A stretch of DNA of 64,000 nt from Pristiophorus japonicus. Lineage: Eukaryota. Below the pieces are notes generated by a model. It ran no database searches. It was not told where the DNA came from and saw nothing but the letters and a program-made list of their open reading frames with translations. Shown here in pieces: positions 1-61,889 of the stretch. Numbering within the stretch: the first letter of the stretch is position 1; each line of letters opens with the position of its first letter. Position numbers and translations under genes: made by a program. Where the stretch lies: NCBI RefSeq assembly GCF_044704955.1, contig NC_091998.1:36456001-36520000 (forward strand), written 5' to 3'.

Positions 1-1625
1 ATTATGGTCACTCTTCCCCAAGGGGCCTCGCACAACGAGATTGCTAATTAATCCCCTCTCATTACACAACACCCAGTCTAAGATGGCCTCCCCCCTAGTT
101 GGTTCCTCGACATATTGGTCGAGAAAACCATCCCTTATGCACTCCAGGAAATCCTCCTCCACCGTATTGCTTCCAGTTTGGTTAGCCCAATCTATATGCA
201 TATTAAAGTCACCCATGATAACTGCTGCACCTTTATTGCATGCACCCCTAATTTCCTGTTTGATGCCCTCCCCAACATCACTACTACTGTTTGGAGGTCT
301 GTACACAACTCCCACTAACGTTTTTTGCCCTTTGGTGTTCTGCAGCTCTACCCATATAGATTCCATATCATCCAAACTAATGTCCTTCCTAACTATTGCA
401 TTAATCTCCTCTTTAAGCAGCAATGCTACCCCACCTCCTTTTCCTTTTATTCTATCCTTCCTGAATGTTGAATACCCTTGGATGTTGAGTTCCCAGCCCT
501 GATCATCCTGGCGCCACGTCTCTGTAATCCCAATCACATCATATCTGTTACCATCTATTTACACAGTTAATTCATCCACCTTATTACGGATACTCCTTGC
601 ATTAAGACACAAAGCCTTCAGGATTGTTTTTATAACACCCTTTGTCCTTTTAGAATTATGATGTAGTGTGGCCCTTTTTGTTTCTTGCCTTTGTTTACTC
701 GGCCTTCCACTATTGCTTTTTACCTTTCTACCATCTGTTTCTGACTCCATATTACTTCGCCCTGTCTCGCTGCATAGGTTCCCATCCCCCTGCCATATTC
801 GTTTAAACACTCCTGAAATGCATCAGCAAATGTTACCCCCAGGACATCAGTTCCAGTCCTGCCCAAGTGCAAACCGTCCCTTTTGTAAAGGTCCCACTTT
901 CCCCAGAACTGGTTCCAATGTCCCAGGAATTTGAATCCCTCCCTCTTGCACCACTGCTCAATCCACGTATTTATTCTAACTATCCTGCTCCCTCTACTCT
1001 GATTAGCACATGGCACTGGTAGCAATCTAGAGATTACTACCTTTGAGGTCCTACTTTTTAATTTAACTCCTAGCTCCCTAAATTCAGCTTGTAGGACCTC
1101 TTCCCGCTTCTTACCTATATCGTTGGTACCTATATGCACCACGACAACTGGCTGTTCACCCTCCCTCTCCAGAATGCTCTGCAGCCGCTCCGAGACATCC
1201 TTGACCCTTGCACCAGGGAGGCAACATACCATCTTGCGGCCGCAGAAACTCCTATCTATTCCCCTTAAAATAGAGTCCCCTATCACTATAGCTCTCCCAC
1301 TCTTTTTCCCGCCCTTCTGTGCAGCAGAGCCACCCATGGTGCCATGAACCTGGCTGCTGGCGCCTTTCCCTGGTAAGTCATCTCCCCCAACAGTATCCAA
1401 AACGGTGTATCTGTTTTGGAGGGAGATGACCACAGGGGACTCTTGCACTACCTTCCTGCTCTTGCCTTGTCTCTTGGTCACCCATTCATTATCTGTTCTA
1501 ACCCTTACCTGCGGTGTGACCAACTCACTAAATGTGCTATCCACAACATTCTCAGCATTGCACATGCTCCAGGGTGAGTCCATCCGCAGCTCCAGTGCCG
1601 TCATGCGGTCTGTTAGGAACTGCAT
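1..1625 (-). mobile_element. CR1-clade LINE, 5' portion: ORF1 (coiled coil + SGNH/GDSL esterase) and start of ORF2 APE endonuclease, running off the window edge
   Basis: ORF 720..1625 has IVIGDSILRG, VHIGTND and DGLHL esterase motifs; ORF 559..810 ends in LCLNARSIRNKVDEL (EN motif I); closely related to the 41768-46105 copy. Confidence 0.92.
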
Positions 1626-2455
1626 CCTTATTGAATACAGGAGTAGTGCCAGAGGATTGGAGGGTTGCCAATGTTATATCACAATTCAAGAAAGGGATAA
1701 ACCAGGAAACGACAGGCCAGTCAGCCTCACATCAGTGGTGGGGAAGTGACAAAATAAACTTTCATTTGGGAAGGCATGGATTAATCAAGGAGAGCCAGCA
1801 TGGATTTGTTAAAAGTAAATCGTGTCTGACGAACTTGATTGAATTCTCTGACGAGGTAACACAGAAGGTTGATCAAGGTAGTGCAGTAGATGCTGTAAAT
1901 ATGGACCCCCGGAAGGCACTCAACAAAGTGCCACACAGGAGAAGATGGAAGCCCATGGAATTTAGGGGAATGTAGTGGTATGGGTGCAGTAAAAGCATTA
2001 TAAAGTTTTCAGATGCTATGAAACTTGGCAAAGTAGGAGATCATAATGAGGATAGTTATTGGCTTCAGGCTGACATAGACAGGATGCTGAAATGGGCAGA
2101 AGTATGGCAAATGGATTTCAATGCAGAGAAGTGTGAAGTGATGCACTTTGGGAGGACGAATATGGAAAGACAGTATACTATAAATGGCAGGATTTCGAAA
2201 AATACAAATGAGCAGAGGGACCGTGGTATCGATATACACAAACACTTAAAGGTGATACGCCAAGTTGATAAGGTGGTCAAAAAATCATATGGGTTACTTG
2301 GTTTTATAAATAGAGGGATAGAATCTAAAAACAAAAAGATCATGCTAGAACTTTATGAATCACTGGTTAGGCATCAGATGGAATATTGTGGACAATTCTC
2401 GGCATCACATTTCAGGAAAGATGTAAAGGCATTAGAAAGGGTAGAGAGGAGGTTA
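1626..2455 (+). mobile_element. Degenerate CR1 ORF2 (RT) fragment
   Basis: VPEDWRVANV, SQHGFVKSKSCLTNL, WQMDFNAEKCEVMHFG motifs with frameshifts and deletions. Confidence 0.85.
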
Positions 2456-2686
2456 AGAACATAAGAATTAGGAGCAGCAGTAGGCCATAAAGCCCTTCGA
2501 GCCTGCTCCGCCATTCAATAAGATCATGGCTGATCTTCAACCTCAACTCCACTTTCCCGTCGAATCCCCATATCTCTTGATTCTCCTAGAGTCCAAAAAT
2601 CTATTTATCTCAACCTTGAATATACTCAATGATTCAGCATCCACATCCCTTTGAGGTAGAGAATTCTAAAGATTTACAACCCTCTG
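2456..2686 (-). mobile_element. CR1 3' end fragment
   Basis: AAGAACATAAGAA tail and GAGCCTGCTCCGCCATTCAATAAGATCATGG 3' UTR shared with other CR1 copies in the window. Confidence 0.8.
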
Positions 2687-3685
2687 TGTTATGTCCTGAA
2701 TAAAGTAATGTGATTGAGTACTGTAGACATAAGTGTGACAGTCTCTTTATTCTAACTCCAGAGTACTGGCACAGCAAGGGAGGCCCGCCCATGCGCAGCG
2801 CTCCCAAGGGATGCAGGGATCCCTTGGGACTCCAACAGATACGCCCTCCGGTGGCGGTAGAATGCTGGCTACATAGGGTTGCATATACATCATCACTCCC
2901 TCCCAAAAGTCAACGGTATACCCATTCACAGGGTGAGACGATCCCGGGTCCCCTGCTCCTCAGTCAACCGTCTCGGCACAAACGCAGGTGCAGGTGAGCC
3001 AGCCGGTTCCCCGCCGGGCTGCTGTGCAGCCGGCCCCGCTGGGCTACCGGGGACGACGAGCCCGGCCCTGCTGGGCTACCGGGGACGACGAGCCCAGCCC
3101 CGCGGCCAACCGTGACGTCGGCCGCCACCCGCGTATGCGTCAGAGGGCCAAAGCTGGCGGCGTCCTCCTCAGGCTGCCCGCGGCCATCCATGAACCGCAG
3201 CTCGGCCCGGTCCAAATGCTCCCTGCAAGTCAGTCCATCTGCGAGTCCGACCCGAAACACCCCACTCCCCTCCCCGGCTACGACAGCGCCAGCAAGCCAT
3301 CCGGGACCACGTCCACAGACGGCACAAACACAGGGTCACCGACCCCAAATACTACGCGACAAACCCGCGCGATCATGGCACACGCCCCGCCGATGACGCC
3401 CGCCCTCGACGCGATCACGGAGACCAGGGTGGACGAGAGAGAGTCCTGCCCCGAGCACCCCCTTCATGAGCAGCTCGGCTGGGGAACCCCGGCGAGCGAG
3501 CTGGGTCCGGTGCGGTAGCTGCGCAGGACCCGGGACAGGCGGGCCGGCAGGGAGACCCCCCGACACACGTCCCAAGCCCCGCTTAATGGTCCGGACCGCC
3601 CACTCTGCCCGGCCGCCGGATGCGGGCCCGAATGGAGCAGATGCGACGCGAACCGATCCCATCGCGGGCCATGAACTTCATAGAC
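2687..3685 (-). mobile_element. Gypsy (Mag-like) LTR retrotransposon remnant: 3' LTR (2687-2892), PPT and A-to-G hypermutated integrase C-terminal region
   Basis: TG...CA bounded ~206 bp LTR with minus-strand AATAAA; adjacent PPT (TCACTCCCTCCC on +); ORFs 3336..3662 and 2964..3260 align to the integrases at 28572 and 31971-32473. Confidence 0.85.
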
Positions 3686-3691
3686 TATCAC

Positions 3692-3945
3692 TAAAAGCAA
3701 GACTTGCATTTATATAGCGCCTTTCATGACTTCAGGACGCCTCAAAGATCTTCACAATGAAGTATTTTTGAAGTGTGGTCACTGATGTAATGTAGGAAAC
3801 ACAGCAGCCAATTTGCGCACAGCAAGCTCCCACAAACAGCAATATGATAATTGGTTTTTAGTGATGGTGGTTGAGGGATAAATATTGGCCAGGACACCGG
3901 GGATAAAACTTGGTTTAATATCTCATCTGAGTTATGGCACCTCAG
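3692..3945 (-). mobile_element. Deu-domain SINE (SacSINE1/AmnSINE1-like), 3' part
   Basis: GCATTTATATAGCGCCTTT tail and CAGCCAATTTGCGCACAGCAAG core, repeated at 7893, 25275 and 52600. Confidence 0.8.
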
Positions 3946-4600
3946 ACTGTGCAGCACTCCCTCAGTCCTGCCCCTCCGACAGTGCGGCGCTCCCTCAGTA
4001 CTGCCCCTCCGACAGTGCGGCACTCCCTCAGTACTGCCCCTCCGACAGTGCGGCGCTCCCTCAGTACTGCCCCTCCGACAGTGCGGCACTCCCTCAGTAC
4101 TGCCCCTCCGACAGTGCGGCACTCCCTCAGTACTGCCCCTCCGACAGTACGGCACTCCCTCAGTATTGCCCCTCCGACAGTGCGGCACTCCCTCAGTACT
4201 GCCCCTCCGACAGTGCGGCACTCCCTCAGTACTGCCCCTCCGACAGTGCGGGGCTCCCTCAGTACTGCCCCTCCGACAGTGCGGCACTCCCTCAGTACTG
4301 CCCCTCCGACAGTGCGGCGCTCCCTCAGTACTGCCCCTCCGACAGTGCGGCACTCCCTCAGTACTGCCCCTCCGAACTGCGGCACTCCCTCAGTACTGCC
4401 CCTCCGACAGTGCGGCGCTCCCTCAGTATTGCCCCTCCGACAGTGCGGCACTCCCTCAGTACTGCCCCTCCGACAGTGCGGCACTCCCTCAGTACTGCCC
4501 CTCCGACAGTGCGGCACTCCCTCAGTACTGCCCCTCCGACAGTGCGGCACTCCCTCAGTACTGCCCCTCCGACAGTGCGGCACTCCCTCAGTACTGCACT
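3940..4600. repeat. 33-bp minisatellite (~20 copies) expanded from the SINE body
   Basis: Unit CAGTACTGCCCCTCCGACAGTGCGGCACTCCCT; single-copy form visible in the SINE at ~25585-25625. Confidence 0.95.
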
Positions 4601-5064
4601 GACCATGTATGTGAACGAGTTTGACTGTGCAAGTTATAAATACAGGAAAGGTTTATGAAAAGCAGGACATGACAGGATAGCCGGTGTAGCTCAAGCTATT
4701 GGATTCCAATCCACTTCCTCCACAACCTTCTGTGCCGTTGAGAAGCTTACCGTGCCTTCTGCTCACCCCAGTGATCAGCCGCGAACAACTGCTCCAGTGC
4801 CTGGGGGTTTTAAACCACGGCCTCCTGACTCGGGCCTGATCACTACCCCCGCCCTCCCTCCCCCCACCCCCGCCACGAATCACGGGTTACACTGTCCCAG
4901 GGAAGTGAGTTGCAAGGAGAGACTCGAGTCATAAGAACATAGAAATAGGAGGAGTCGGCCCCTCGAGCCTACTCCGCCATTCAATACGATCATGGCTGAT
5001 CATCGACCTCAACTCCACTTTCCCGCCTGATCTCTATATATAGAGACGTGCGGGGGGGGGGGGG

Positions 5065-5392
5065 AATGTGTGCAGTCTCTGGGTGTGGGTGTGGGAGTGG
5101 GCGATGGGGAGTGAGTGTGTGTGGGCGATGGGGAGTGAGTGTGTGTGTGTGTGTGGGCGATGGGGAGTGAGTGTGTGTGTGTGTGTGGGCGATGGGGAGC
5201 GAGTGTGNNNNNNNNNNNNNNNNNNNNNNNNNNNNNNNNNNNNNNNNNNNNNNNNNNNNNNNNNNNNNNNNNNNNNNNNNNNNNNNNNNNNNNNNNNNNN
5301 NNNNNNNNNNNNNNNNNNNNNNNNNNNNNNNNNNNNNNNNNNNNNNNNNNNNNNNNNNNNNNNNNNNNNNNNNNNNNNNNNNNTGATGGGGA

Positions 5393-5423
<31 letters not shown>

Positions 5424-5444
5424 GGGGTGGGTGGGTGATGGGGA

Positions 5445-5476
<32 letters not shown>

Positions 5477-5534
5477 TGGGGAGTGTGTGTGTGTGTGATG
5501 GGGAGTGAGTGTGTGTGTGTGTGTGTGATGGGGA

Positions 5535-5581
<47 letters not shown>

Positions 5582-5685
5582 CGATGGGGAGCGAGTGTGT
5601 GTTTGTGTGTGGGCGATGGGGAGTGAGTGTGTGTGTGTGTGTGTGTGTGGGTGATGGGAGGGGAGGTGTGTGGGGGTGATGTGGG
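5065..5685. repeat. (TG)n / GATGGGGAGTGA compound microsatellite spanning an assembly gap (N 5208-5383)
   Basis: Direct inspection. Confidence 0.95.
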
Positions 5686-6149
5686 CATATAATTATAGTT
5701 ACAGGGTTAAATTTAAGATTGTGTCTAAAAGAATGAAGGGAGAGATTAGGAGAATGTTGTTTACACAGAGTTGTTAGAAGAGGGAACGCTCGACCAGAAA
5801 CAGTGCAACAGTCAGGAAACATCCTAACAATCGCTTCTCAAGGTCACAGAAGGTTCTGGAAGAAGTGGTTTGGAACAGCTAACTTGTCTACTTTAAAATC
5901 AACTATTTCTGTCCAGTCCAACTCTGTCACCGACACACGGACACTCAGCAAGCCCCCACCCCGACACTGACGCCCCTCCCACAGGAGGGCGGGATTCTGG
6001 GAGGGGGCCAGCAGCCTGGCTCCGTAAACCAATATCTTGCTCCACAATAGACGACAAACTGGCCGATTGTTAATCGTGGGCCGGAAACGGTGGGAATGTT
6101 TTCCTGCACAACTCGCACCGGTTCTGTACAGCACAGACTGAGATTACAG

Positions 6150-7090
6150 CCCCACGCCCCCACACACAGCCCCCACACCTCTTCCCCCCCACCTCCCCAC
6201 ACACACCCAGCCCCCTCACACCCAGAGGCTGCCCCCACCACACACACACCCAGCCCCCTCACACCCAGACACTGCCCCCCCACACACACACCCATCCCCC
6301 TCACACACACACCCAGAGACTGCCCCCCCCCCCCACACACACACCCAGCCCCCTCACACCCAGAGGCTGCCCCCACCACACACACACCCAGCCCCCTCAC
6401 ACCCAGAGACTGCCCCCCCACACCCACACCCAGCCCCCTCACACCCAGACACTGCCCCCCCACACACACACCCATCCCCCTCACACACACACCCAGAGAC
6501 TGCCCCCCCCCACACACACACCCAGACCCCTCACACCCAGAAATTGCCCCCCTCACACACACCCATCCCCCTCACACACACACACCCAGCCCCCTCACAC
6601 CCAGACACTGCCCCCCCCCCCCACACACACACACCCATCCCCCTCACACACACACCCAGCCCCCTCCCACCCAGAGACTGCCCCCGCCCCTGCCACACAC
6701 ACACCCATCCATCCCCCACACCTCCGCCCCTCCCCCACACTCAGTGAAAGCCCCTCCACCCCCTTCACCCCCCCCCACCACAAACCCAACCCCCTCACAC
6801 AGCACCCCCCCAACCAGTGACAGTCCCCCGCCTCAGAGCCCCTGTATCTGCCCCAAACCCCCTCTGACTACCCATACACACCCATCCCCCACACTCACCC
6901 ATCCCCCTCACACCCAGTGACAGTCCCCCCGCCACACACACAGAGATTGCCCCTCCCACCCCCTGTAACTGCCCCAAACCTCCTCTGACTACCCCACCCC
7001 GTGACTGCACCCCCCTCACACACACCCATCCCCCCCACACCGAGACGGCCTCCAACCCCTCCCCGAGATTGCCTCAGACACCCCACACCA
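6150..7090. repeat. C/A-rich degenerate minisatellite (CCCCCTCACACCCAGA units)
   Basis: Direct inspection; produces spurious Pro/His/Thr ORFs. Confidence 0.9.
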
Positions 7091-7212
7091 AACAGAATTG
7101 AGACCCAGTTCTGTTGGTGACGGGGTGGCGGGAGGAATTGAGAGAAAGAAAAGTAATGTATTGTGCATTTATGTAGTGCCTTTCACAACCACAAGGCATC
7201 CCAAATCGCTTT

Positions 7213-7890
7213 AGGAACATAGGAACAGTAGAAGGCCATTCAGCCCCTGGAACCCATTCCACCATTCAACATGATCATGGCTGATCAGTGACCTAACTCC
7301 ACATCTCTTTATTTGTGGGAGAGAGCTCCACACTTGTACTGCCCTTTGTGTGGAGAAGTGTTTCCTAACTTCTCTCCTGAATATCCTGGCTCTGATTTTA
7401 ATGTTATGCCCCTTGTTCTAGACTCTCCCAGCAGTTGAAAAAAGTTTCTCTCTATCAACCCAATCAACTTCTTTCAAAATCCTAAAAACCTCAATCAAAT
7501 CCCCCTGCAAGCTTCTATATTCCAGGGAATACAAGCTTACTTTGTGTAATCTCACCCTTGGAGCCCGGGTAACATTCTGGGGAATCTGCGCTGCGCGCCT
7601 TCCAAGGCCAATATATCCTTTCAACGGTGCGGTACCCAAAACTCCAGATTGGTCTAACCAGGGCTTTGTACAGCTGGAGAAAAACCTCCTCCCCTTTATA
7701 TTCCAGCCCTCGGTATAAAGGCCAATGTTCCATTAGCCTTTGATTATTTTTTGTACCTGACCTTTACATTTCACTAAGCTGTGTACATGGACCCCCAATC
7801 CAATCTCTCTGGACCACCACTGTTCCTAGCTTTTCACCATTTAAAGAATCCCGATCTATCTTTCTACAGCCCACAGTGGATGGCTTCACA
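7213..7890 (-). mobile_element. Old CR1 3' fragment
   Basis: GLEYKGEEVFLQLYKALVRP and LYSLEYRSLQGDLIEVFRIL motifs. Confidence 0.8.
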
Positions 7891-7892
7891 CT

Positions 7893-8170
7893 TACAGCCA
7901 ATGACGTACTTTTGGAGTGTAGTCACTGTTGTAATGTGGGAAACGCGGCAGCCAATTTGCGCACAGCAAGATCCTACAAATATCAATGTGATAATAACCA
8001 AATAATCTGTTTTATTGATGTTGCTTGAGGGATAAATATTGGCCCAGGACACCGGGGATAACTCCTCTGCTCTTCTTCAAATAGTGCCATGGGATCTTTT
8101 ACATCCACCTGAGAGAGCAGACGGGGCCTCGGTTTAACGTCTCATCTGAAAGACGGCACCTCCAACAGTG
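7893..8170 (-). mobile_element. Deu-domain SINE fragment
   Basis: Same core as the 25275 and 52600 copies. Confidence 0.8.
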
Positions 8171-8254
8171 TATCCCTCTTCTTTCAATAGTGCCATGGGA
8201 TCTTTTGCGTCCATGTGCGAGGATTTTGTTTTAACACCTGTTGTTCACCATTTA

Positions 8255-10400
8255 CACAAACGATTTGGACTCGGGAATCGGAAGTACAACTTCAAAATTT
8301 GCGCATGACACCAAATTTTGGGTAGGGGTGGGATAGTTAACACAGAGGAAGACTGCGACAAAATACAAGACATTAATAAACTTGCATGCAATTGGCCAGT
8401 GAGCTTCAGTATCTATCAGTGCGAGGTAATACATGTTGGTTGGAAGAATAAGGAGACCACAAACGCCTTGGAAAATAAATGTGGCAACAGAGCAGAGGAA
8501 CAGGACTCCGGGGCACAGATACACACATCACTAGAAGTAACAACGCAGGTTAACAAGGCCATAAAAAGCAAACACAGCACTGGGTCATTTACAGAATTGA
8601 AAAACAGAGAAGTTATGTTAAACTTGTACAAAACCTTAGTTAGACCACACTTGGAGTACTGTGAACAGTTCTGGTCTCCATGTTATAAAAAGGATACAGA
8701 GGCACTGGAGAAACATAGAAAGAGAAAATAGGTGCAGGAGTAGGCCATTCGGCCCTTCGAGCCTGCACCGCCACTCAATAAGATCATGGCTGATCATTCC
8801 TTCAGTACCCCTTTCCTGCTTTCTCTCCATACCCCTTGATCCCCTTAACCGTAAGGGCCATATCTAACTCCCTCTTGAATATATCCAATGAACTGGCATC
8901 AACAACTCTCTGCGGCAGGGAATTCCACAGGTCAACAACTCTCTGAGTGAAAAAGTTTCTCCTCATCTCAGTCCTAAATGGCCTACCCCTTATCCAAAGA
9001 CTATGTTCCCTGGTTCTGGACTTCCCCAACATCGAGAACATTCTTCCCGTATCAAACCTGTCCAGTCCCGTCAGAATCTTAAATGTTTCTATGAGATCCT
9101 CTCTCATCCTTCTAAACCCCAGTGAATAAAGGCCCAGTTGATCCAGTCTCGCCTCATATGACAGCCCAGCCATCCCTGGAATCAGTCTGGTGAACCTTCG
9201 CTGCACTCCCTCAATAGCAAGAACGTCCTTCCTCAGATTAGGAGACCAAAACTGAACACAATATTCCAGGTGAGGCTTCACTAAGGCCCTGTACAACTGC
9301 AGTAAGACCTCCCTGTTCCTATATTCAAATCCCCTAGCTATGAAGGCCAACATACCATTTGCCTTCTTTACCGCTTGCTGTACCTGCGTTCCCACTTTCA
9401 GTGACTGATGAACCATGACACCCAGGTCTCGTTGCACTCCCCCTCTTTTCTAGACTGCTGCCATTCAGATAATATTCTGCCTTTGCGTTCCCGCCCCCAA
9501 AATGGACAACCCCACATCCATCCACACCATACTGCATCAGCCATGCACCTGCCCACCCACTCAATCTGTCCAAGTCACCCTGCAGCCTCCCAGCGTCCTC
9601 CCCACAGCTCACACCACCACCCAGTCCAGTGTCATCCGCAAACCTGGAGACACTACACTCCATTCCCTCATCCAAATCGTCAATGTACATTGCAAAGAGC
9701 TGGGGTCCCAGCACTGAGCCCCGTGGCACCCTACCAGCAACTGCCCGCCACTCTGAAAAGGACCCGTCCATCCCTACTCTCTGCCCCTGCCCGCCAACCA
9801 GCCCACCACTCACGCCAGAACACCACCCCCAATACCATGCGCCCCGATCTCGCTCACCAATCTCCTGTGTGGGACCCCACCAAAAGTCCTCCGAAAGTCC
9901 AAATACACCACATCCACTGGTCCTCCCCCGTCCACCCCACCAGCCACATCCCCAAAAAATTCCAGAAGATTCGTCAAGAAGGTGCAACAATAGTTACTAG
10001 GATGATAGCAGAACTGAGGTTTATACCCATTAGGAAAGATTGAACAGCCTGGGGCCCTTTTCTCGGGAAAGGGGAAGACTGAGGGGTGAGCCGATAGAGG
10101 TCTTCAAGATGATGAAAGGGTAGATGTCGAGAAAATGTTTCCACTTGTGGGGGAGTCCAAAACTAGAGCTCATCCACATATGTCAGTAATAAATCCAATG
10201 GGGAATTCAGGAGAAACTTCTTCACCCATGAGAGCGGTGAGAATGTGGAACTCACTGCCACAGGAAGGGGTTGAGGTGAGTAGCACAGATACATTTAAGG
10301 GGAAGCTGGATAAACTTACGAGGGGGAAAAGGAGGAGCTTGTGGAGCATAAACACCGGCACGGACCAATCGGGCCGAATGGCCTGTTTCTGTGCTGTACA
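8255..10400 (+). mobile_element. Old CR1 3' fragment split by a younger CR1 insertion (halves 8255-8712 and 9977-10400)
   Basis: GGCACTGGAGAA and AGAAGGTGCAA rejoin as ALEKVQ; AGAA duplicated at both junctions. Confidence 0.8.
8713..9976 (-). mobile_element. 5'-truncated CR1 insertion; 3' part normal, 5' ~490 bp A-to-G hypermutated
   Basis: ORF 8802..9437 nearly identical to the ORF2 C-terminus of other copies; ORF 9334..9990 is RT core with Gly/Arg/Ala/Asp substitutions. Confidence 0.92.
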
Positions 10401-10789
10401 TGCGATATAAATGTTAGTTTATTTTATGATTGGCCGATGTTGAGTCAGTGCAGTTTCTGCTCTCTCTCCCACATCCCTTTCAACCGCTCACCAATTCTTC
10501 AAGTGACACACTGCTGCTCCACCCCACCAGCTCAGCCTTAGATGTGAATATACAGAGTTTCCTAATCCAGGTGATGAATGCAGTTTATAACATCTCATCA
10601 CTCCCGACTACTCACTGCTTCTCCCCTGTCACCAATCGCTTAGCCAAGTCCAACTTTCAGCCACGATACCGAATGCCTGAGGTGTGTGTGGCAGCCTTTC
10701 ATGTGGAACCTTAACCAGAGCTTTCTTGCAGTCAAACATCACACCACAAGGCTGTTCAACAATTTCTCAGAAATGGCAGAAGTGGGAAC

Positions 10790-11245
10790 AACCCCAACAC
10801 CTAACAATACTCCAAATATCCCAAGTACCCCCACAAAACACCCCGAATATCCATCCACCACCCCAGCCCCCAAATACCCCCACAAATCACCCCCAGAGCT
10901 CCAACCCCCAATCCCAGACAGAGCCCCCACACACAGCCCCAACCCCCAACCCCTAAACAGAGCCCCCACCCTGACCCCCCACACACAGCCTCAACCCTCA
11001 TCCCCCACACATAACCCCAACCCCCACACAGAGCCCCAACCTTCACCCCCCACACAGAACCCCAACCCTCACCCCCTACACAGAGCCCCAACCCTCACCC
11101 CCCACACAAAGCCCCAACCCTCACCCCCTACACAGAGCCCCAACCCCCACACACAACCCCAACCCCCTACACAGAGCCCCAACCCTCACACATAGCCCCA
11201 ACCCCCCCCTCACACACACACACACACACACAGCCCCCCACCCAC
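10790..11245. repeat. C/A-rich minisatellite (ACAGAGCCCCAACCC units) at the intron 5' end
   Basis: Direct inspection. Confidence 0.85.
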
Positions 11246-11251
11246 ACTTAC

Positions 11252-11332
11252 CCAGAAGATGATGTTGAAAACGAACAGGACGTATTTGAAGACACAGCTG
11301 ACCTGCGCCCCCTGGTACTTGTAATGTGGCAT
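11252..11332 (-). CDS. TSPAN14: First coding exon of a TspanC8 tetraspanin, best match tetraspanin-14 (MPHYKYQGAQVSCVFKYVLFVFNIIFW)
   Basis: 27 codons from gccgagATG to TGG then GTAAGT donor; VSC-KY-LF-NIIFW motif and 81-nt exon typical of TSPAN14/5/17; linkage to DNAJC9 (both on human 10q) favours TSPAN14; later exons not found in the window. Confidence 0.75.
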
Positions 11333-11600
11333 CTCGGCAACCCGCGTCCCGCTGTCGGTGCACCCAGCCCCGGGGGTCCCTGCCCGGGGACCCGCTCTCC
11401 CTGCCCGGCTCCGGCTCCAGCCGCCGCCGCTGCCGCTGCCGCTGCCCCTGCCCGCTCTCACTCACTCACTCACTCACTCCCTCCCGGGGACACTGGCTGA
11501 AAGCAGCGCTTCATGTTAAGGCGGAGCAGGAAGCGGAGAGACTCGGACCCGCCTTAAAGCGTCAGCCAGAGCCGGAACCTGAGAGAGAATACAGAGAGAG
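11333..11600 (-). promoter_or_regulatory. CpG-rich 5' UTR / promoter of the tetraspanin gene
   Basis: GC/CpG-rich with (GCGGCA)n, contiguous with the ATG and lacking a polypyrimidine acceptor. Confidence 0.55.
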
Positions 11601-11764
11601 AGATGCAGTGAGGGACCTGGGGCTTGGAGCGGAGTCGATGAGATGCAGTGGTTCCCTGCCCACTGTGTCCTTCTGTATCCCTGCCATGGGCGCTATGGTT
11701 GCCCCATTGCACAGCCAGGCATTGCCCCAAAGAGCGCTACCCCTGTACCAGAGGCTGCATACAC

Positions 11765-12665
11765 TTGAGCGCATCCAAAACACGGCTGCCCGTGTCCTAA
11801 CTCGCACCGAGTCCCGCTCACCCATCACCCCCCTGCGCTCGCTGACCCGTGTCCTAACTCGCACCGAGTCCCGCTCACCCATCACCCCCCTGCGCTCGCT
11901 GACCTGTGTCCTAACTCGCACCGAGTCCCGCTCACCCATCACCCCCTGCGCTCGCTGACCCGTGTCCTAACTCGCACCGAGTCCCGCTCACCCATCACCC
12001 CCTGCGCTCGCTGACCCGTGTCCTAACTCGCACCGAGTCCCGCTCACCCATCACCCCTGCGCTCGCTGACCCGTGTCCTAACTCGCACCCAGTCCCGCTC
12101 ACCCATCACCCCCTGCGCTCGCTGACCCGTGTCCTAACTCGCACCGAGTCCCGCTCACCCATCACCCCCTGCGCTCGCTGACCCGTGTCCTAACTCGCAC
12201 CGAGTCCCGCTCACCCATCACCCCCTGTGCTCGCTGACTCATATCCTAACTCGCACCGAGACCCGCTCACCTATCACCCCCTGTGCTCACTGCCCCGAGT
12301 GCTAACTCGCACCGAATCCCGCTGACCCATCACCCCCTGCACTCACTGACCTACATTGGCTCCCGGTTAATCAACGCCTCGATTTCAAAATTCTCATCCT
12401 TGTTTTAAAATCCCTCCATGGCCTCACCCCTCCCTATTTCTGTGATCTCCTCCAGCCCTACAACTCTCCGAGATGTCTGTGCTCCTTCAATCTGGCCTCT
12501 TGAGCATCCCCAATTTCCATCACTTCGTCATCGGTGGCCGTGCCTTCAGCTACCTGGGCCCTAAGCTCTGGAACTCCCTCCTTAAACCTCTCTGCCTCTC
12601 TACCTTTCTTCCTTTAAGATGCTCCTTAAAACTTACCTCTTTGACCAGACTTTTGGTCACCTGCC
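11765..12665 (+). mobile_element. L2 LINE 3' fragment containing a 55-57 bp tandem array (~10 copies, 11789-12350)
   Basis: IQNTAARVLTRT...SPITP...LHWLPV and GGRAFSYLGPKLWNSL motifs; unit CCCGTGTCCTAACTCGCACCGAGTCCCGCTCACCCATCACCCCCTGCGCTCGCTGA. Confidence 0.88.
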
Positions 12666-14352: not shown

Positions 14353-16935
14353 TTACAGACCTCCAAACAGTAGTAGTGATGTTGGGGAGGGCATCAAACA
14401 GGAAATTAGGGGTGCATGCAATAAAGGTGCAGCAGTTATAATGGGTGACTTTAATATGCACATAGATTGGGCTAACCAAACTGGAAGCAATACGGTGGAG
14501 GAGGATTTCCTGGAGTGCATAAGGGATGGTTTTCTAGACCAATATGTCGAGGAACCAACTAGGGGGGAGGCCATCTTAGACTGGGTGTTGTGTAATGAGA
14601 GAGAATTAATTAGCAATCTCATTGTGCGAGGCCCCTTGGGGAAGAGTGACCATAATATGGTGGAATTCTGCATTTGGATGGAGAATGAAATAGTTAATTC
14701 AGAGACCATGGTCCAGAACTTAAAGAAGGGTAACTTTGAAGGTATGAGGCGTGAATTGGCGAGGATAGATTGGCGAATGATACTTAAGGGGTTGACTGTG
14801 GATGGGCAATGGCAGACATTTAGAGACCGTATGGATGAATTACAACAATTGTACATTCCTGTCTGGCGTAAAAATAAAAAAGGGAAGGTGGCTCAACCGT
14901 GGCTATCTAGGGAAATCAGGGATAGTATTAAAGCCAAGGAAGTGGCATACAAATTGGCCAGAAATAGCAGTGAACCCGGGGACTGGGAGAAATTTAGAAC
15001 TCAGCAGAGGAGGACGAAGGGTTTGATTAGGGCAGGGAAAATGGAGTACGAGAAGAAGCTTGCAGGGAACATTAAGGCGGATTGCAAAAGTTTCTATAGG
15101 TATGTAAAGAGAAAAAGGTTAGTAAAGACAAACATAGGTCCCCTGCAGTCAGAATCAGGGGAAGTCATAACGGGGAACAAAGAAATGGCAGACCAATTGA
15201 ACAAGTACTTTGGTTCGGTATTCACTAAGGAGGACACAAACAACCTTCCGGATATAAAAGGGGTCAGAGGGTCTAGTAAGGAGGAGGAACTGACGGAAAT
15301 CTTTATTAGTCTGGAAATTGTGTTGGGGAAATTGATGGGATTGAAGGCCGATAAATCCCCAGGGCCTGATGGACTGCATCCCAGAGTACTTAAGGAGGTG
15401 GCCTTGGAAATAGCGGATGCATTGACAGTCATTTTCCAACATTCCATTGACTCTGGATCAGTTCCTATCGAGTGGAGGGTAGCCAATGTAACCCCACTTT
15501 TTATAAAAGGAGGGAGAGAGAAAACAGGGAATTATAGACCGGTCAGCCTGACCTCAGTAGTGGGTAAAATGATGGAATCAATTATTAAGGATGTCATCGC
15601 AGCGCATTTGGAAAATGGTGACATGATGGGTCCAAGTCAGCATGGATTTGTGAAAGGGAAATCATGCTTGACAAATCTTCTGGAATTTTTTGAGGATGTT
15701 TCCAGTAAAGTGGACAAAGGAGAACCAGTTGATGTGGTATATTTGGACTTTCAGAAGGCTATCGACAAGGTCCCACACAAGAGATTAATGTGCAAAGTTA
15801 AAGCACATGGGATTGGGGGTTGTGTGCTGACGTGGATTGAGAACTGGTTGTCAGACAGGAAGCAAAGAGTAGGAGTAAATGGATACTTTTCAGAATGGCA
15901 GGCAGTGACCAGTGGGGTACTGCAAGGTTCTGTGCTGGGGCCCCAGCTGTTTACATTGTACATTAATGATTTAGACGAGGGGATTAAATGTAGTATCTCC
16001 AAATTTGCGGATGACACTAAGTTGGGTGGCAGTGTGAGCTGCGAGGAGGATGCTATGAGGCTGCAGAGTGACTTGGATAGGTTAGGTGAGTGGGCAAATG
16101 CATGGCAGATGAAGTATAATGTGGATAAATGTGAGGTTATCCATTTTGGTGGTAAAAACAGAGAGACAGACTATTATCTGAATGGTGACAGATTAGGAAA
16201 AGGGAAGGTGCAACGAGACCTGGGTGTCATGGTACATCAGTCATTGAAGGTTGGCATGCAGGTACAGCAGGCGGTTAAGAAAGCAAATGGCATGTTGGCC
16301 TTCATAGCGAGGGGATTTGAGTACAGGGGCAGGGAGGTGTTGCTACAGTTGTACAGGGCCTTGGTGAGGCCACACCTGGAGTATTGTGTACAGTTTTGGT
16401 CTCCTAACTTGAGGAAGGACATTCTTGCTATTGAGGGAGTGCAGCGAAGATTCACCAGACTGATTCGTGGGATGGTGGGACTGACCTATCAAGAAAGAGT
16501 GGATCAACTGGGCTTGTATTCACTGGAGTTCAGAAGAATGAGAGGGGACCTCATAGAAACATTTAAAATTCTGACAGGTTTAGACAGGTTCGATGCAGGA
16601 AGAATGTTCCCAATGTTGGGGAAGTCCAGAACCAGGGGTCACGGTCCAAGGATAAGGGGTAAGCCATTTAGGACTGAGATGAGGAGGAACTTCTTCACCC
16701 AGAGAGTGGTGAACCTGTGGAATTCTCTACCACAGAAAGTAGTTGAGGCCAATTCACTAAATATATTCAAAAGGGAGTTAGATGAAGTCCTTACTACTAG
16801 GGAGATCAAGGGGTATGGCGAGAAAGCAGGAATGGGGTACTGAAGTTTCATGTTCAGCCATGAACTCATTGAATGGCGGTGCGGGCTAGAAGGGCTGAAT
16901 GGCCTGCTCCTGCACCTATTTTCTATGTTTCTATG
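14353..16935 (+). mobile_element. Young 5'-truncated CR1
   Basis: Uninterrupted 800-aa ORF and (TTTCTATG)n tail. Confidence 0.95.
14441..16843 (+). CDS. CR1 ORF2 (C-terminal part of APE endonuclease + reverse transcriptase), N-terminally truncated
   Basis: MGDFN, SDHNM, QGSVLGP and FADD motifs; no stops. Confidence 0.9.
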   Translation: MGDFNMHIDWANQTGSNTVEEDFLECIRDGFLDQYVEEPTRGEAILDWVLCNERELISNLIVRGPLGKSDHNMVEFCIWMENEIVNSETMVQNLKKGNFEGMRRELARIDWRMILKGLTVDGQWQTFRDRMDELQQLYIPVWRKNKKGKVAQPWLSREIRDSIKAKEVAYKLARNSSEPGDWEKFRTQQRRTKGLIRAGKMEYEKKLAGNIKADCKSFYRYVKRKRLVKTNIGPLQSESGEVITGNKEMADQLNKYFGSVFTKEDTNNLPDIKGVRGSSKEEELTEIFISLEIVLGKLMGLKADKSPGPDGLHPRVLKEVALEIADALTVIFQHSIDSGSVPIEWRVANVTPLFIKGGREKTGNYRPVSLTSVVGKMMESIIKDVIAAHLENGDMMGPSQHGFVKGKSCLTNLLEFFEDVSSKVDKGEPVDVVYLDFQKAIDKVPHKRLMCKVKAHGIGGCVLTWIENWLSDRKQRVGVNGYFSEWQAVTSGVLQGSVLGPQLFTLYINDLDEGIKCSISKFADDTKLGGSVSCEEDAMRLQSDLDRLGEWANAWQMKYNVDKCEVIHFGGKNRETDYYLNGDRLGKGKVQRDLGVMVHQSLKVGMQVQQAVKKANGMLAFIARGFEYRGREVLLQLYRALVRPHLEYCVQFWSPNLRKDILAIEGVQRRFTRLIRGMVGLTYQERVDQLGLYSLEFRRMRGDLIETFKILTGLDRFDAGRMFPMLGKSRTRGHGPRIRGKPFRTEMRRNFFTQRVVNLWNSLPQKVVEANSLNIFKRELDEVLTTREIKGYGEKAGMGY

Positions 16936-19517
16936 ATACTTTTAGTGTCTTCTACTGTGAAGACTGATACAAAATATTTGTTCAAAGTCTCTGCCATTTC
17001 CCTGTTCCCCATTATTAATTCCCCAGTCTCATCCGCTAAGGGACCAATGTTTACTTTACTCACTCTTTTCTTTTTTATATACCTGTAGAAGCTCTTACTG
17101 TCTGTTTTAATATTTCTTGCTAGTTTACTCTGATAAACTAGCTTCTCTCTCGTTATTATTGTTTTAGTCGTCCTTTGCTTGTTTCTAAAGATTTCTCAAT
17201 CCTCTGGCCTACCACTAGTCTTAGCAACATTGTATGCCTTTGTTTTCAATTTGATACCATCCTTTACTTCCTTAGTTAGCCACGGATGGTTCATCTTAAA
17301 GGCTTTCTTTCTTACTGGAATTTATCTTTGTTGAGAGTTATGAAATATCTCCTTAAATGGCTGCCACTGTTTATCTATCGTCTTACCCTTTAATATACTT
17401 TCCCAGTCCACTTTAAGCAGCTCTGCCTTCATACCTTTTGTAATTACCTTTATTTAAGTTCAGGACACTAGTTTGAGACCCAAGTTTCTCACCTCAAACT
17501 GAATTTGAAATTCTCCCATGCTATGACCATTCTTCACGATAGGATCCTTCACTACGAGATCATTAATTTATCCAGACTTGTTACACATTACCAGATCTAA
17601 AATAGTCTGCTCCCTGGTTGGCTCCACAAAGTATTGTTATAAGAAACCAATCCGCATACACTCTATGAACTCGTCCTCAAGGCTACCTTTGTCAATTTGA
17701 TTTGTCCAATCAATATGAAGATTAAAATCGCCCATGATTATTGCTTTATGTTTCTTACAAGCCCCCATTATTTCTTGTCTCTATACTCTGTCGTACAGTG
17801 TAGCGACTGTAATGGGGCCTATAGACTGCGCCCACCAGTGGCTCCTTTCCCTTACTATTTCTTATTTCCACACAAACTTATTCTACATCTTGATCTTCTG
17901 AGCCAATATCACCTCTTACTATTGCACTGATCTCACCCCTTACTAACAGAGCTACCCCACCACCTTTTCCTTTCTGCCTGTCCTTCCGAAATGTCAAATA
18001 GCCCTGAATATTCAGTTCTCAGCCTTGGTCACCTTGCAGTCATGTTTCTGTAACGGCTATCAGATCATACCCATTTATTTCTATTTGTGCCGTCAACTCA
18101 TTGATCTTGTTACGAATGCTGCGTGCATTCAGATAAAGAGCTTTTAAATTTATCTTTTTACCCTTTTTCCCTGCTCTCACTCTACTTCCTAGTGCACTCT
18201 TATGTTTATACGCTCTGTCCCTTCCTGTCATCCTCTGGTATCATTACCCCCATCGTTACCCTGCACGATTACCTGCCCCTTTCTCCTTTCTCTTTGTCTT
18301 TTAAATTTCCCCTCACCTGAACTCCCCCCCCCCGCCCCCCCATTATTTAGTTTTAAACCCTCTCTACAGCCCGAGTTATTTGATTCGGCAGGACACTAGT
18401 CCCAGCCTGGTTCAAGTGAAGCCCGTCCCAAAGGAACTGCTCCCTCTTATCCCAGTACTGGTGCCAGTGCCCCATGAATCAAAACCCATTTCTCCCTGAC
18501 CAATCTTTGAGCCACGTGTTTAACTCTCTGATCTTATTTACCCGATGCAAATTTGCTCGTGGTTCAGGTAGTAATCCAGAGATTATTACCTTTGTGGTTC
18601 TGCTTTTTAATTTAGCCCTAGCTGCTCACACTCCCTCAGCAGAACCTCTTTCTTTGTCCCACCTGTCGTTGGTACCCACGTGGACCACGACAACTGGATC
18701 TTCCCCCTCCCACTCCAACTTCCTCTCCAGCCCAGAGGAGATGTCCTTAACCCTGGCACTGGGCAGGCAACACAGCCTTTGGGACTCATGCTCTCGGCTG
18801 CAGAGAACTTTATCTATCCCCCACTACTACTACATTTCTTTTTACTCCCCCCACTTGAATGGCCCCTGTACCACGGTGCTGTGGTCAGTTTGCTCATCCT
18901 CCCTGCAGTCCCTGCTCTCGTCTACACAGGGAGCAAGAGCCTCGAACCTGTTGGACAAGAGCAAGGGCTGAGGCTCCTCCATCACTACCTCCTGGGTCCC
19001 CATACCTGCCTCACTCGTAGTCATATCCTTCTGTCCCTGACCACGGACCAAATTTGAATGAATTAAACTAAGGAGTGTGACTGCCTCCTGGAACACAGTG
19101 TCCAGGTAACTCTCCCCCTCCCTGATGTGTCGCAGTGCCTGAAGCTCGGACCCCAGCTCATCAACACGAAGCCGAAGTTCCTTGAGCCGCCAACACTTGC
19201 TGCAGGTGTGGTCGCCGTGGATCACACTGGTGTCCAGCAGCTCCCACACGCTGCATCTGCAACACATCACCCACCCCGCCATCTCTAGTGTATTTTAGTT
19301 AATGAATTAGGTTGTCAAGTTTTGAAATGTCACATTTTCTATGTATAGTTTTAAAATCTGTAATCGCGGCTCTTAATTTAAACCGATGCCCAAGTTTAGA
19401 AAAAGAGAGCAATACTCACCAACCAATCACTTACCTGCTTTCCTGTGACATCACATTTTGTTTTTTTTTCTCTCCCCTCACAGGTCCGTTCGCTCTTCTC
19501 CCAGCGAGTTCTTTTAT

Positions 19518-20101: not shown

Positions 20102-23100
20102 TGTTCTAGTAACGACTCCACGAGGCAGTGTGTTGTACTTGAACTGTAGTGACCTTAGTCCTTTATTCGTTAACTCCAGAGTGAGGATCACACCTGGTGG
20201 CCTGCCTTTTATACTAGGCCAGGCACACCTGTGCAGGTAACCTACAAGTCTCTCACTGCTGTGCCCCCTGATGGCACACCTTGAGATAGTACCAACAGTA
20301 GCCATGTAGGATACATGACATCACTCTCCCCTGAGCCTTTAGTGCAAATCGCCTCTGCATTGACTGTGCTCTGGGCTTAGCGCTATGTGGGCTCTTGGCG
20401 GGTCGTTTCAATCTTGGGTGAGTGGTTGGTGCAGTAGAGTGCTGGTGGTTGCTGTTTGTGTGTGTCCCTGACTACTCCATTCTCGCCCCCGCCCTCCCCC
20501 CACATATAGATTATGTCGGAGGCTCATAACATTCATATACATTCAAGTTCAGGGAAAATGTTACATTTGTGGTTCCGTTGTGAGACAAGTACGTTAGACT
20601 AGTGAGATACCGTATCGATGCAGTGACCAGTGCGTGAGGACAAGCTAGTTCCAGAACTGCTGGATTGTGTCCCTGCAGTCTGGTGGTGGCTCAGTGCCCA
20701 GTGCTGGCAGTGGGAGCCCGGTTGGCTCGAGGTGCCTGCTCTCGGGGCTCTTGCCGTGGTCCCTAGCGTCGGGCCGGTTCACAGATGCCTGTGACCTCCC
20801 TGTCCTTTCTTTGTGCCCTGGGTCGCTGCTGCTTCCTGAGGAGCTGTCGTCTAGCAGTGCACAGGGAACTGCTGACTCGCTGGCCTGAGCGTCGCTTGGT
20901 TTGAGATCCTGACTGGTCCCGGTCCCCTTTGGGGGAACTGTTGCGGGTGACCCTTCGTTTCCGGGTATGGCTTTGGTGGCGATGGGGTCTGGGGGCTGTG
21001 CCTTAGCACCGTCTGCCCCTTCAGGCTCGTGGCAGTTGGTGCCATCGGGTGCCTGAGAGGTGGAGCCGATCAGAGGCAGGGTATCGATACCGGTGCCGTT
21101 GCCCTGCTGAGATTGCTTGCTCTGCAGCTCGTGTGTGTTGGCTGCTTGTGGCCACACTCCATGGTGCATGACTCTGGTCCCTGGGATGCAGGCTACAGCA
21201 TTGGGTAGCTCGCCGGACCTGTGTGCTCCCGATGGGTGTCTGCATGCAGTTGAAACCCTGCATCACACAACTTTTCCTTACTTATGATGGACACTCTGTG
21301 GGTCCGACCGCGATTGCGCGACTTTTCCTCACTGGGTGCATGTACACAATTCAGATTATTAATTACACATTTTACATGTTTTGTCTCTGACTTACAAATA
21401 CTATTACATTGTTTAATTGTATGGAACTGTCCCTTTAATTGTAGTGGATTGCAGGCCTCCTTTAAGAGAGCCTTGCTTTCTTTACCCCAATCCGCTTCTC
21501 CGTTTGGTGCCACGTGTTGCTCCATCAGCGCTGCACCTCGTGGTCTGGCCGCGGCCATCTTTTTCTTCAGCACCTCACCTCGTGGTTTGGGTGCCATCTT
21601 TCTTCCATCCACGACTGGGAGAAATTTAGAATTCAGCAGAGGAGGACAAAGGGTTTAATTAGGAAGGGGAAAATAGAGTTATGAGAGGAAGCTTGCTGGG
21701 AACATAAAAACTGACTGCAAAAGATATGTGAAGAGAAAAAGATTAGCGAAGACAAACGTAGGTCCCTTGCAGTCAGAATCAGGTGAGTTTATAATGTGGA
21801 ACAAAGAAATGGCAGACCAATTGAACAAATACTTTGGTTCTGTCTTCACAAAGGAAGGCACAAATAACCTTGCAGAAATACTAGGGGACCGAGGGTCTAG
21901 CGAGAAGGAGGAACTGAAGGAAATCCTTATTAGTCAGGAAATTGTGTTAGGGAAATTGATGGGATTGAAGGCCAATAAATCCCCAGGGCCTGATAGGCTG
22001 CATCCCAGAGTTTTTAAGGAAGTGGCCCTAGAAATAGTGGATGCATTGGTGATCATTTTCCAACAGTCTATCGACTCTGGATCAGTTCCTATGGATTGGA
22101 GGGTAGCTAATGTAACACCACTTTTTAAAAAAGGAGGGAGAGAGAAAATGGGGAATTATAGACCGGTTAGCCTGACATCAGTAGTGGGGAAAATGTTGGA
22201 ATCAATTATGAAAGATGAAATAACAGCGCATTTGGAAAGCAGTGACAGGATTGGTCCAAGTCAGCATGGATTTATGAAAGGGAAATCATGCTTGACAAAT
22301 CTTCTAGAATTTTTTGAGGATGTAACTAGTAGAGTGGACAAGTGAGAATCAGTGGATGTGGTGTATTTGGATTTTCAAAAGGCTTTTGACAAGGTCCCAC
22401 ACAAGAGATTAGTGTGCAAAATTAAAGCACATGGTATTGGGGGCAATGTATTGACGTGGATAGAGAACTGGTTGGCAGACAGGAAGCAGAGAGTCGGGAT
22501 AAACGGGTCCTTCTCAGAATGGCAGACAGTGACTAGTGGGGTGTCGCAGGGCTCAGTGCTGGGACCCCAGCTATTTACAATATACATCAATGATTTAGAT
22601 GAAGGAATTGAGTGTAATATCTCCAAGTTTGCATGAAGCTGGGTGGCGGTGTGAGCTGTGAGGTGGATGCTAAGAGGCTGCAGGATGACTTGGACAGGTT
22701 AGGTGAGTGGGCAAATGCATGGCAGATGCAGTATAATGTGGATAAATGTGAGGTTATCCACTTTGGTGGCAAAAACATGAAGGCAGAATATTATCTGAAT
22801 GGCAGCAGATTTGGAAAAGGGGAGGTGCAACGACTCCTGGGTGTCATGGTACATCAGTCATTGAAAGTTGGCATGCAGGTACAGCAGGCGGTGAAGAAGG
22901 CAAATGGCATGTTGGCCTTCATAGATAGGGGATTTGAGTATAGGAACAGGGAGGTCTTAATGCAGTTGTACAGGGCCTTGGTGAGGCCTCACCTGGAATA
23001 TTGTGTTCAGTTTTGTTCTCCTAATCTGAGGAAGGACATTCTTGCTATTGAGGGAGTGCAGCGAAGGTTCACCAGACTGATTCCAGGGATTGCAGGACTG

Positions 23101-29095: not shown

Positions 29096-29190
29096 CCTGG
29101 GATCACTGGGACAGATCACACAGTGACCCTGGGATCACTGGGACAGATCACACAGTGACCCTGGGATCACTGGGACAGATCACACAATGA
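29092..29190. repeat. 32-bp tandem repeat x3 at the Gypsy truncation point, followed by G-rich low complexity
   Basis: Unit TGACCCTGGGATCACTGGGACAGATCACACAG. Confidence 0.85.
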
Positions 29191-34584: not shown

Positions 34585-34919
34585 CTCGGCTAATCAGCTC
34601 CTCCCCAACAGTGCGGGACCATTGACCTGGACAATCCAGAGTGGCAGCCAATTCACTAACCTGTTGTGTGTGACAGTCAACATTGCACAGCCTAGCACCG
34701 GAATGATTTCTTTAGTGTAAGTCCGTAATTGTGTCTCAATACATGCTGATTTGGGTCGACTGGCTTTAAGTGGTCATAGCTTCTCAAATTGCTGAACGCC
34801 CATGAGTGACTGGCTGGCCCCAGTGTCCAGTTCCATGTGTACAGGGATACAGTTTAATAAAACCCTCATCATCATTGGTGGCGTTTTGGTGTATGAACTG
34901 TGAATATTCGCCACATGGA

Positions 34920-45868: not shown

Positions 45869-46384
45869 AGAGTGGTGAACCTGTGGAATTCTCTACCACA
45901 GAAATTTGTTGAGGCCAATTCACTAAATATATTCAAAAAGGAGTTAGATGAAGTCCTTACTACTAGGGGAATCAAGGGGTATGGTGAGAAAGCAGGAATG
46001 GGGTACTGAAGTTGCATGTTCAGCCATGAACTCATTGAATGGCGGTGCAGGCTAGAAGGGCCGAATGGCCTACTCCTGCACCTATTTTCTATGTTTCTAT
46101 GTTTCTAACTGCGTGTCCCGCTGGGCTGTCTCAGAGGGCAGTTAACAGTCAACCACGTTGCTGTGGGTCTGGAGTCACATATGGGCCAGACCGGGTAAGA
46201 GCAGCAGGTTTACATCCCTAAAGGACATTAGTGAACCAGCTGGGTTTTTACAACAGTTTCATGGTCACCATTACTGATACTAGCTTTTTAATGAACTGAG
46301 TTTAATTCCCCAGCTGCTGTGTTGGGATTTTAACTCATGCTTCCGGATCATCAGTCCAGGCCTCTGGATTACTGGTCCAATAAC

Positions 46385-61774: not shown

Positions 61775-61889
61775 CTGGGCACAAGACAGGGTCATCAGCG
61801 AGCGTCCATCACACAGCGTCGGATGGGAGGGGTAGGGAGGGGTAGGCAGGGGTCAGATGGACAGGGCCCAATCACACGGCATCATGAAC

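Follow-up and report, generated by a model that had tools for sequence, protein, structure and literature searches.

The window analysed here is the whole stretch of 64,000 nucleotides from Pristiophorus japonicus, and the features that concern us in it are the following.

2687 to 2895, minus strand: Gypsy-type 3' LTR (TG...CA) with AATAAA at 2751-2746 (sequence and A content)
2760 to 3686, minus strand: tract 1, an A>G hypermutated stretch (substitution skew, contig comparison and neighbour contexts)
2896 to 3686, minus strand: C-terminal half of a Gypsy integrase and polypurine tract, the 5' part of the element missing (homology, tblastn and substitution skew)
8709 to 9978, minus strand: 5'-truncated CR1-type LINE, with the end of the reverse transcriptase and the 3' tail (copy identity, RVT_1 and junctions)
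9439 to 9972, minus strand: tract 2, the A>G hypermutated 5' part of the LINE (four-way alignment)
11252 to 11332, minus strand: first coding exon of 27 codons, likely from a tetraspanin gene (sequence and weak PDB matches)

Two hypermutated tracts and their likely host intron

A sequence-only reading had placed both tracts in a tetraspanin intron. The tetraspanin assignment is tentative and comes from one exon, which is followed by a GTAAGT donor at 11251-11246 and whose 27 aa gave four PDB matches, all of them tetraspanins (CD53, CD81, CD9) and all weak (E 0.55-6.9); a Pfam search of the exon gave no match, and no second exon was found downstream. Tracts 1 and 2 are downstream of this exon, in what is likely its intron. 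They are ~6 kb apart, and in both the element sense strand coincides with the host strand.

Ty3/Gypsy elements carry the reverse transcriptase (RT) and RNase H, then integrase, followed by the polypurine tract and a TG...CA LTR. The last two are visible on inspection of the tract 1 element, and its integrase region matched RT-RNaseH-rve polyproteins in a protein homology search (E 2e-7); these homologues carry the RVT_1, RNase H and rve families, the RT being absent from the tract 1 fragment. The element was compared with three Gypsy relatives in the window, which are 49-61% identical to it. The sense strand showed 80 A>G changes versus 7 G>A against one of them, and 40 versus 4 and 10 versus 0 against the other two, while six comparisons among the relatives themselves gave no skew (p 0.05-0.44). 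The earlier claim of T>C on the plus strand, i.e. A>G on the minus strand, was thus borne out. Sense A content is 11% in tract 1 and 30-36% in the relatives, and by a composition-based estimate about 60% of the sense adenosines in 2896 to 3686 have become G. Clusters of sense-strand G>A, the APOBEC signature, are absent (7/122). The encoded peptide contains 18% Gly and 2% Lys, as against 3-8% and 2-9% in 23 homologues, and a protein search for similarly edited copies returned 23 matches, none of them Gly-rich.

Contigs of relatives were also compared around tract 1. Among the 40 listed of 139 difference rows, the window has C where these contigs have T in 18 of 27 rows between 2777 and 3522, and in one of 13 in the flanks; decay of CpG in the relatives accounts for at most the six of the 18 that lie at CpG. 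Seven such rows, among those listed, fall within the LTR at 2786-2888. The tract does not stop at 2940, as had been proposed, but continues into the LTR to about 2760, and the U3 part is A>G-changed. A content in the LTR is 17% before the AATAAA and 34% after it; on composition, rather than on a full count against relatives, the R-U5 end looks spared.

The LINE carrying tract 2, probably of the CR1 clade, sits inside an older plus-strand CR1 with AGAA flanks on both sides, and has a short tandem 3' tail. It is 81-85% identical to three window copies, and its RVT_1 match (E 3e-4) is below the cut-off; a related CR1 copy at 1-1618 carries Lipase_GDSL_2 (esterase ORF1) and Exo_endo_phos. In a four-way alignment with the window copies at 22291-23544, 44833-46106 and 15667-16940, private T>C changes on the plus strand were counted in fixed bins, and were observed at 59 of 142 T sites in 9401-9978 versus 9 of 159 in 8709-9400; private T>C in the former bin amounts to 1, 0 and 0 in the other three. 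With limits chosen from the data (9439-9972) the counts are 59/133 versus 9/167 in the rest (Fisher p 3e-16), a load of 44%, and the T>C claim holds for this tract as well. The other plus-strand changes in the tract are few (A>G 4/119, C>T 8/142, G>A 2/54), the C>T count showing that an APOBEC-type cluster of sense G>A is absent here too. Tract 2 makes up the 5' 530 nt of the LINE and is dense from 9486, while the 3' 730 nt looks spared; the GC content of the tract is 57%. A protein search for other copies of the tract gave two matches among 10 candidates, at 67% identity, and the CR1 tail motif had 0 matches in metagenome contigs.

Neighbour contexts of the changed adenosines

In both tracts the change is A>G and is confined to the element sense strand. 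The load is comparable to that of avian proviral A>G cases, in which near 50% of adenosines are changed (PMC12925331). A 5' U/A is favoured by ADAR and a 5' G disfavoured (PMC3113232; PMC5625713). In tract 2, 30 of 49 adenosines with 5' U/A are changed versus 22 of 64 with 5' C/G (p 0.007); for 5' G alone the counts are 12/35 versus 40/78 (p 0.11), and a 3' U gives the lowest rate (6/27 versus 44/80, p 0.004). In tract 1, 5' G is disfavoured (15/32 changed versus 69/87, p 0.001), whereas 5' U/A versus C/G gives p 0.31 and comparison with the second relative carries no signal (5' G 6/10, p 0.43). These statistics come from several contexts tried. In both tracts adenosines followed by another A are changed most often, and neither tract shows a preference for 3' G. 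The non-amniote motif group of PMC5625713, to which sharks may or may not belong, has the same most-changed context. The neighbour bias is hence partly ADAR-like, and its direction is right in both tracts. The brain of the elephant shark is rich in hyper-edited RNA (PMC5625713).

Origin of the tracts

Our best explanation, with a probability of about 0.6, is that ADAR hyperedited the RNA of each element, in two independent events, before it was reverse-transcribed. The element RNA would have been double-stranded in part, presumably with an antisense or inverted copy at its source locus, and an enzyme that is probably ADAR would have converted A to I there. Reverse transcriptase would read inosine as G, so that the A>G changes would have been fixed as the copy entered the germline, in two insertion events that were probably independent. 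The survivors would be those RNAs whose priming and integration ends stayed intact. Such editing more probably arose as a side effect of ordinary dsRNA editing than as a dedicated defence.

The sequence-only reading had favoured this order of events on the ground that the tracts stop at element ends. In tract 2 this is true of the 5' limit, which lies 5 nt short of the junction, but the 3' limit falls inside the element. The flanks are not hyperedited: one of the 13 flanking rows listed at tract 1 is of this type, and 8 of 51 T sites are changed in 9979-10390. The argument is nevertheless weak, because a duplex formed in the pre-mRNA by inverted repeats would have the same limits. Better support for pre-insertion editing, which remains the best fit, comes from the apparent sparing of the CR1 3' end and LTR R-U5, on which completion of retrotransposition depends, and from the lack of a close inverted partner in view. 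None was found in 1-11600, the best matches being 59-65% over 78-121 nt; the intron runs past the window edge and a partner could sit beyond. An unedited CR1 copy of the tract 2 segment is without structure of its own (z -0.5).

Local write-back is an unlikely alternative, though the foremost. Here the pre-mRNA would be hyperedited at inverted intron repeats and copied back, through gene conversion by a cDNA or through RNA-templated repair, or else R-loop DNA would itself be the substrate of ADAR; in vitro the enzyme is able to deaminate the DNA of DNA:RNA hybrids (PMC12925331). If true, write-back of a gene's RNA onto itself would account for host-strand changes in two unrelated repeats of one intron. 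Since the sense strand of each element is also the host strand, strand does not discriminate between write-back and pre-insertion editing. A scan of the window for A>G tracts in 203 overlapping segments (39 in the intron, 164 outside) flagged tract 2 and a stretch at 54.7-55.3 kb, which is a tandem satellite and was rejected as an edited tract. The earlier statement that no comparable tract lies outside the intron is confirmed for the 164 outside segments. A-poor plus-strand stretches at 20.6-21.2, 24.5-24.9 and 31.7-32.1 kb are minus-strand Gypsy sequence whose sense strand is T-poor, the wrong direction, and are taken as normal composition; no A/G cluster was found in the LTR pairs 20090/25035 and 31490/37190. 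Clustering of the tracts in the intron has a post hoc P of about 0.05, which is weak evidence and agrees with the earlier caution that two cases cannot establish clustering. The plus-oriented CR1 pieces of the intron do show a mild T>C excess (20/174 versus A>G 10/201, p 0.02), among them 8/45 in a segment (1630-1960) that overlaps an inverted match, at 59%, to tract 2. However, these partner arms reach 11%, not 44-60%; a control group outside is equally skewed (p 0.02); and the intron's other, neighbouring CR1 pieces in minus orientation show no editing (13/310). The common pre-mRNA partners, 3' CR1 fragments and solo LTRs, would moreover be expected to pair with exactly the parts that look spared. 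It is likely that the shared intron and strand reflect coincidence or retention bias.

A dedicated germline restriction, in which an adenosine deaminase loaded on retroelement RNPs would be the A>G counterpart of APOBEC3, appears improbable. Two unrelated element classes are affected within 64 kb, with a load that rewrites proteins, as in the Gly-rich tract 1 peptide. The tracts, however, are local blocks, as from a duplex, and restriction of L1 by ADAR1 is editing-independent (PMC5224506). Nor do the data show the proposed anti-retroelement system: editing did not keep either copy from inserting, and each is in any case a fragment.

Bursts of reverse-transcription errors caused by unbalanced dNTP pools, without a deaminase, are marginally less probable again. 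They would likewise give one-stranded changes confined to retrocopies, and the neighbour bias is weak; yet the same change would have to come from two different polymerases, at 44-60% of A and in sharply bounded blocks, and 5' G and 3' U are avoided.

Least probable is an artefact of sequencing or assembly, for instance through edited RNA reads that entered polishing or filled gaps. N gaps are present in the assembly, and the runs that match, presumed to be DNA, may be from the assembly's own sample, but a contig of run X1 (depth 20) matches 2856-3718 with 0 differences over 863 nt, across the 5' junction, and contigs of runs X3 and X4 do so over 637 nt. X3 and X4 comprise 2.5-3.8 billion letters of contigs, with no piece among those listed over 3493-3718; rare variants within high-copy repeats are lost from run contigs. 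Run X2, from another sample, has no piece listed over tract 1, a gap that proves nothing. For tract 2 the words are poorly represented (shares of 0.06-0.23 in seven runs, with no RNA run among those listed; 0.23 of 48 words at best); the low shares are compatible with an artefact and decide nothing either way. Both tracts are confirmed as real, DNA-run contigs supporting tract 1 and the assembly sequence alone tract 2.

Known systems and significance

Among the closest precedents are the fossils that APOBEC 'DNA editing' has left in LTR retrotransposons (Knisbacher and Levanon, PMC4866542), which share clustered sense-strand hypermutation of one type in elements that still integrated. Edited copies there are enriched in genes. 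Those fossils are G>A, whereas here the change is A>G and a LINE is affected besides an LTR element; non-G>A clusters were very rare in that large LTR screen. In Rous-associated virus as well as avian leukosis virus, ADAR-type A>G at roughly one in two adenosines, in the U3 and in an inverted-repeat region, is likewise recorded after reverse transcription (PMC12925331), but these are exogenous retroviruses in somatic cells, unlike the Gypsy and CR1 copies of an assembled animal genome. Across animals, ADAR hyper-editing of dsRNA derived from repeats (Porath et al., PMC5625713) gives the same clustered A>G with 5' G depleted, and chicken CR1 and elephant shark RNA are heavily edited; those edits are in RNA only, and ours are in DNA. 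ADAR1 also acts on the LINE-1 life cycle (PMC5224506), but no edits were found in L1 RNA, in contrast to the tracts here; in cell culture L1 RNA was unedited by ADAR1 over 2.5 kb, which counts against our best explanation. According to a 2016 review (PMC4982230), it is undetermined what part ADAR plays in the evolution of retroelements and in mutational suppression. The literature searched, in which subscription journals were thinly covered, yielded no account of retroelement copies in a germline that were hyperedited A>G; A>G counts may be present in supplements, e.g. of PMC4866542.

Neither a defence system nor a link to the host gene is established by two cases. That A-to-I editing is a routine heritable germline mutagen in this lineage, whether by genome-wide ADAR scarring of LINE and LTR RNAs or by intron-RNA write-back, is a tentative idea and rather unlikely. 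The suggested mimicry of CpG islands holds for tract 1 (70% GC, CpG o/e 0.94, an unedited Gypsy relative already having 0.66), which indicates that such editing can turn a repeat into a CpG-island-like stretch, but not for tract 2 (o/e 0.46). Germline copies with A>G blocks would be a fossil record of germ-cell RNA editing, readable from genomes alone, and would allow a direct census test of pre-insertion editing against RNA-to-DNA write-back.

Two A>G tracts in minus-strand retroelements

Both tracts, which lie in the likely intron of a tetraspanin-like gene, were compared with other copies in the window, contigs of public sequencing runs and protein homologues. Their host elements are:

2687-3686, minus strand: terminal portion of a Gypsy-type element that lacks its 5' part and comprises the C-terminal half of the integrase, a polypurine tract and a TG...CA LTR, carrying tract 1
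8709-9978, minus strand: 5'-truncated CR1-type LINE, 81-85% identical to three window copies, carrying tract 2

For tract 2, counting was restricted to sites at which the three window copies agree. T>C on the plus strand, that is A>G in the element's sense, was observed at 59 of 142 T sites in 9401-9978 vs 9/159 in 8709-9400, while the three copies had 1, 0 and 0 private T>C changes in 9401-9978. With limits chosen from the data (9439-9972), the counts were 59/133 vs 9/167 elsewhere (p 3e-16). The remaining transition types were at background level there, and the remaining divergence from the closest copy was similar inside (7.4%) and outside (6.0%). The tract runs up to the 5' junction and ends ~730 nt before the element's 3' end. 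The insertion target was an older plus-strand CR1, with AGAA on either side. The best of 7 public runs contained 0.23 of 48 words from tract 2.

Against three window relatives, tract 1 showed 80 sense A>G vs 7 G>A (510 columns), 40 vs 4 (244) and 10 vs 0 (79); no such skew was found among these relatives themselves. This confirms the sequence-only reading that two retroelements here carry plus-strand T>C tracts. In a comparison with 23 homologues (1351 amino-acid mismatches), A>G changes alone could produce 22% of the mismatches and G>A changes 3%, as against 7% and 11% for an unedited window copy. A contig of depth 20 from one public run had 0 differences to window 2856-3718 and two further runs matched 2856-3492; all three are a single sample, presumed DNA and possibly the assembly's source, with no second individual, and the match argues against an RNA-polishing artefact. 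Among the 40 of 139 rows listed, the window had C and the relatives' contigs T in 18/27 element rows (7 in LTR U3) and in 1/13 flank rows. In the flank past the 5' junction of tract 2, T>C was seen at 8/51 sites. Per 50 nt, plus-strand T numbers 17-18 at 2600-2749 but drops to 3-10 in most of 2750-3699 (with 13 at 2850-2899), which places the start of tract 1 near 2760; the poly(A) signal and R-U5 thus appear to lie outside it, spared. The suggested mimicry of CpG islands held for tract 1 (70% GC, CpG o/e 0.94), but tract 2 is not island-like.

A ~30-bp tandem duplication at 3030-3100 in tract 1 may be later than the editing, since the changed letters are common to both copies. The LTR U3 also holds an imperfect palindrome (28 bp, 2802-2829).

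Neighbouring bases and published parallels

In tract 2, 30/49 A were changed after U or A vs 22/64 after C or G (p 0.007), and A before U had the lowest rate (6/27). In tract 1, A after G was least changed against the longer relative (15/32 vs 69/87, p 0.001); with the shorter relative the 5' G effect was not significant. Neither tract passes the other's test. This bias follows the ADAR 5' rule, yet falls short of the strong depletion of 5' G that has been published (PMC3113232, PMC5625713).

APOBEC fossils are the established parallel, although these are G>A and our tracts A>G; other mismatch clusters were very rare in that screen (PMC4866542). A>G at almost half of adenosines is described for two avian retroviruses (PMC12925331). 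One account terms the mutational role of ADAR on retroelements undetermined (PMC4982230), another describes no editing of L1 RNA in culture (PMC5224506), and A>G clusters in cDNA traces are handled as RNA editing in a third (PMC2873906). Among the papers returned by our literature search, none concerned LINE or Gypsy copies with A>G hyperediting in the germline.

The surrounding window

11750-12350: CpG-rich 51-bp unit repeated in tandem, where a LINE-like repeat ends just upstream of the tetraspanin-like exon
20102-25261, 26700-29100, 31490-37430, 47900-49340: four further Gypsy-type elements
3960-4600, 52930-53490: two arrays in which a 30-bp unit, derived from a SINE-like repeat, has expanded in tandem
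54530-55936, 57580-58018: satellite of ~32-bp units
61541-61780, minus strand: DNAJC9 exon (HTH_DNAJC9, E 9e-26)

More DNAJC9 exons are likely near 59096-59310 and 58470-58600, which makes 11.6-58.4 kb intergenic with a minus-strand gene on each side. Two of the four Gypsy-type elements have both LTRs, 93% identical, and a nested CR1 in each. Skew flags at the ~32-bp satellite were false, produced by the satellite itself.

Editing before insertion or in place

We favour ADAR-type editing before insertion, as the sequence-only reading did, with a probability of about 0.62. Its argument from tracts stopping at element borders does not decide the matter, because a repeat duplex in pre-mRNA would also end there; strand is equally uninformative on timing, because each element has the orientation of the host transcript. 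What counts for editing before insertion is that no close inverted partner was found in 1-11600 (best 59-65% over ~100 nt) and that the intron's remaining minus-strand CR1 pieces are unedited (13/310). The parts that appear spared would be those which CR1 or LTR RNA needs for completing retrotransposition; common partners would also be expected to pair with these parts first, which would point the same way.

Editing in place with local write-back is improbable. In its favour, both tracts lie in the intron, which extends past the window, and 0 were found in 164 windows outside, as had been noted; from the intron's 22% share of assessable bases, this clustering has P ~0.05, post hoc. Plus-oriented CR1 pieces in the intron also showed T>C at 20/174 vs A>G at 10/201 (p 0.02), but one of two outside control groups had equal skew.

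The old plus-oriented CR1 pieces with mild T>C excess are at 1630-1960, 8200-8708 and 9979-10390. Near 1906-1908, a TTT>CCC-like run falls inside a stretch that matches tract 2 in inverted orientation at 59%.

Folding the CR1 segment of an unedited copy gave no more structure than shuffled sequences did (z -0.5), so that the proposed duplex would have had to come from a partner. Arrest of the elements by editing is not indicated, because stop codons cannot arise by A>G and each copy is a fragment. Two cases give no support to a dedicated system, which is nevertheless possible. Under editing before insertion, an antisense or inverted copy most likely formed a duplex with part of each element's transcript; ADAR in a germ-line cell would have hyperedited this transcript, which would then have been reverse transcribed and inserted.
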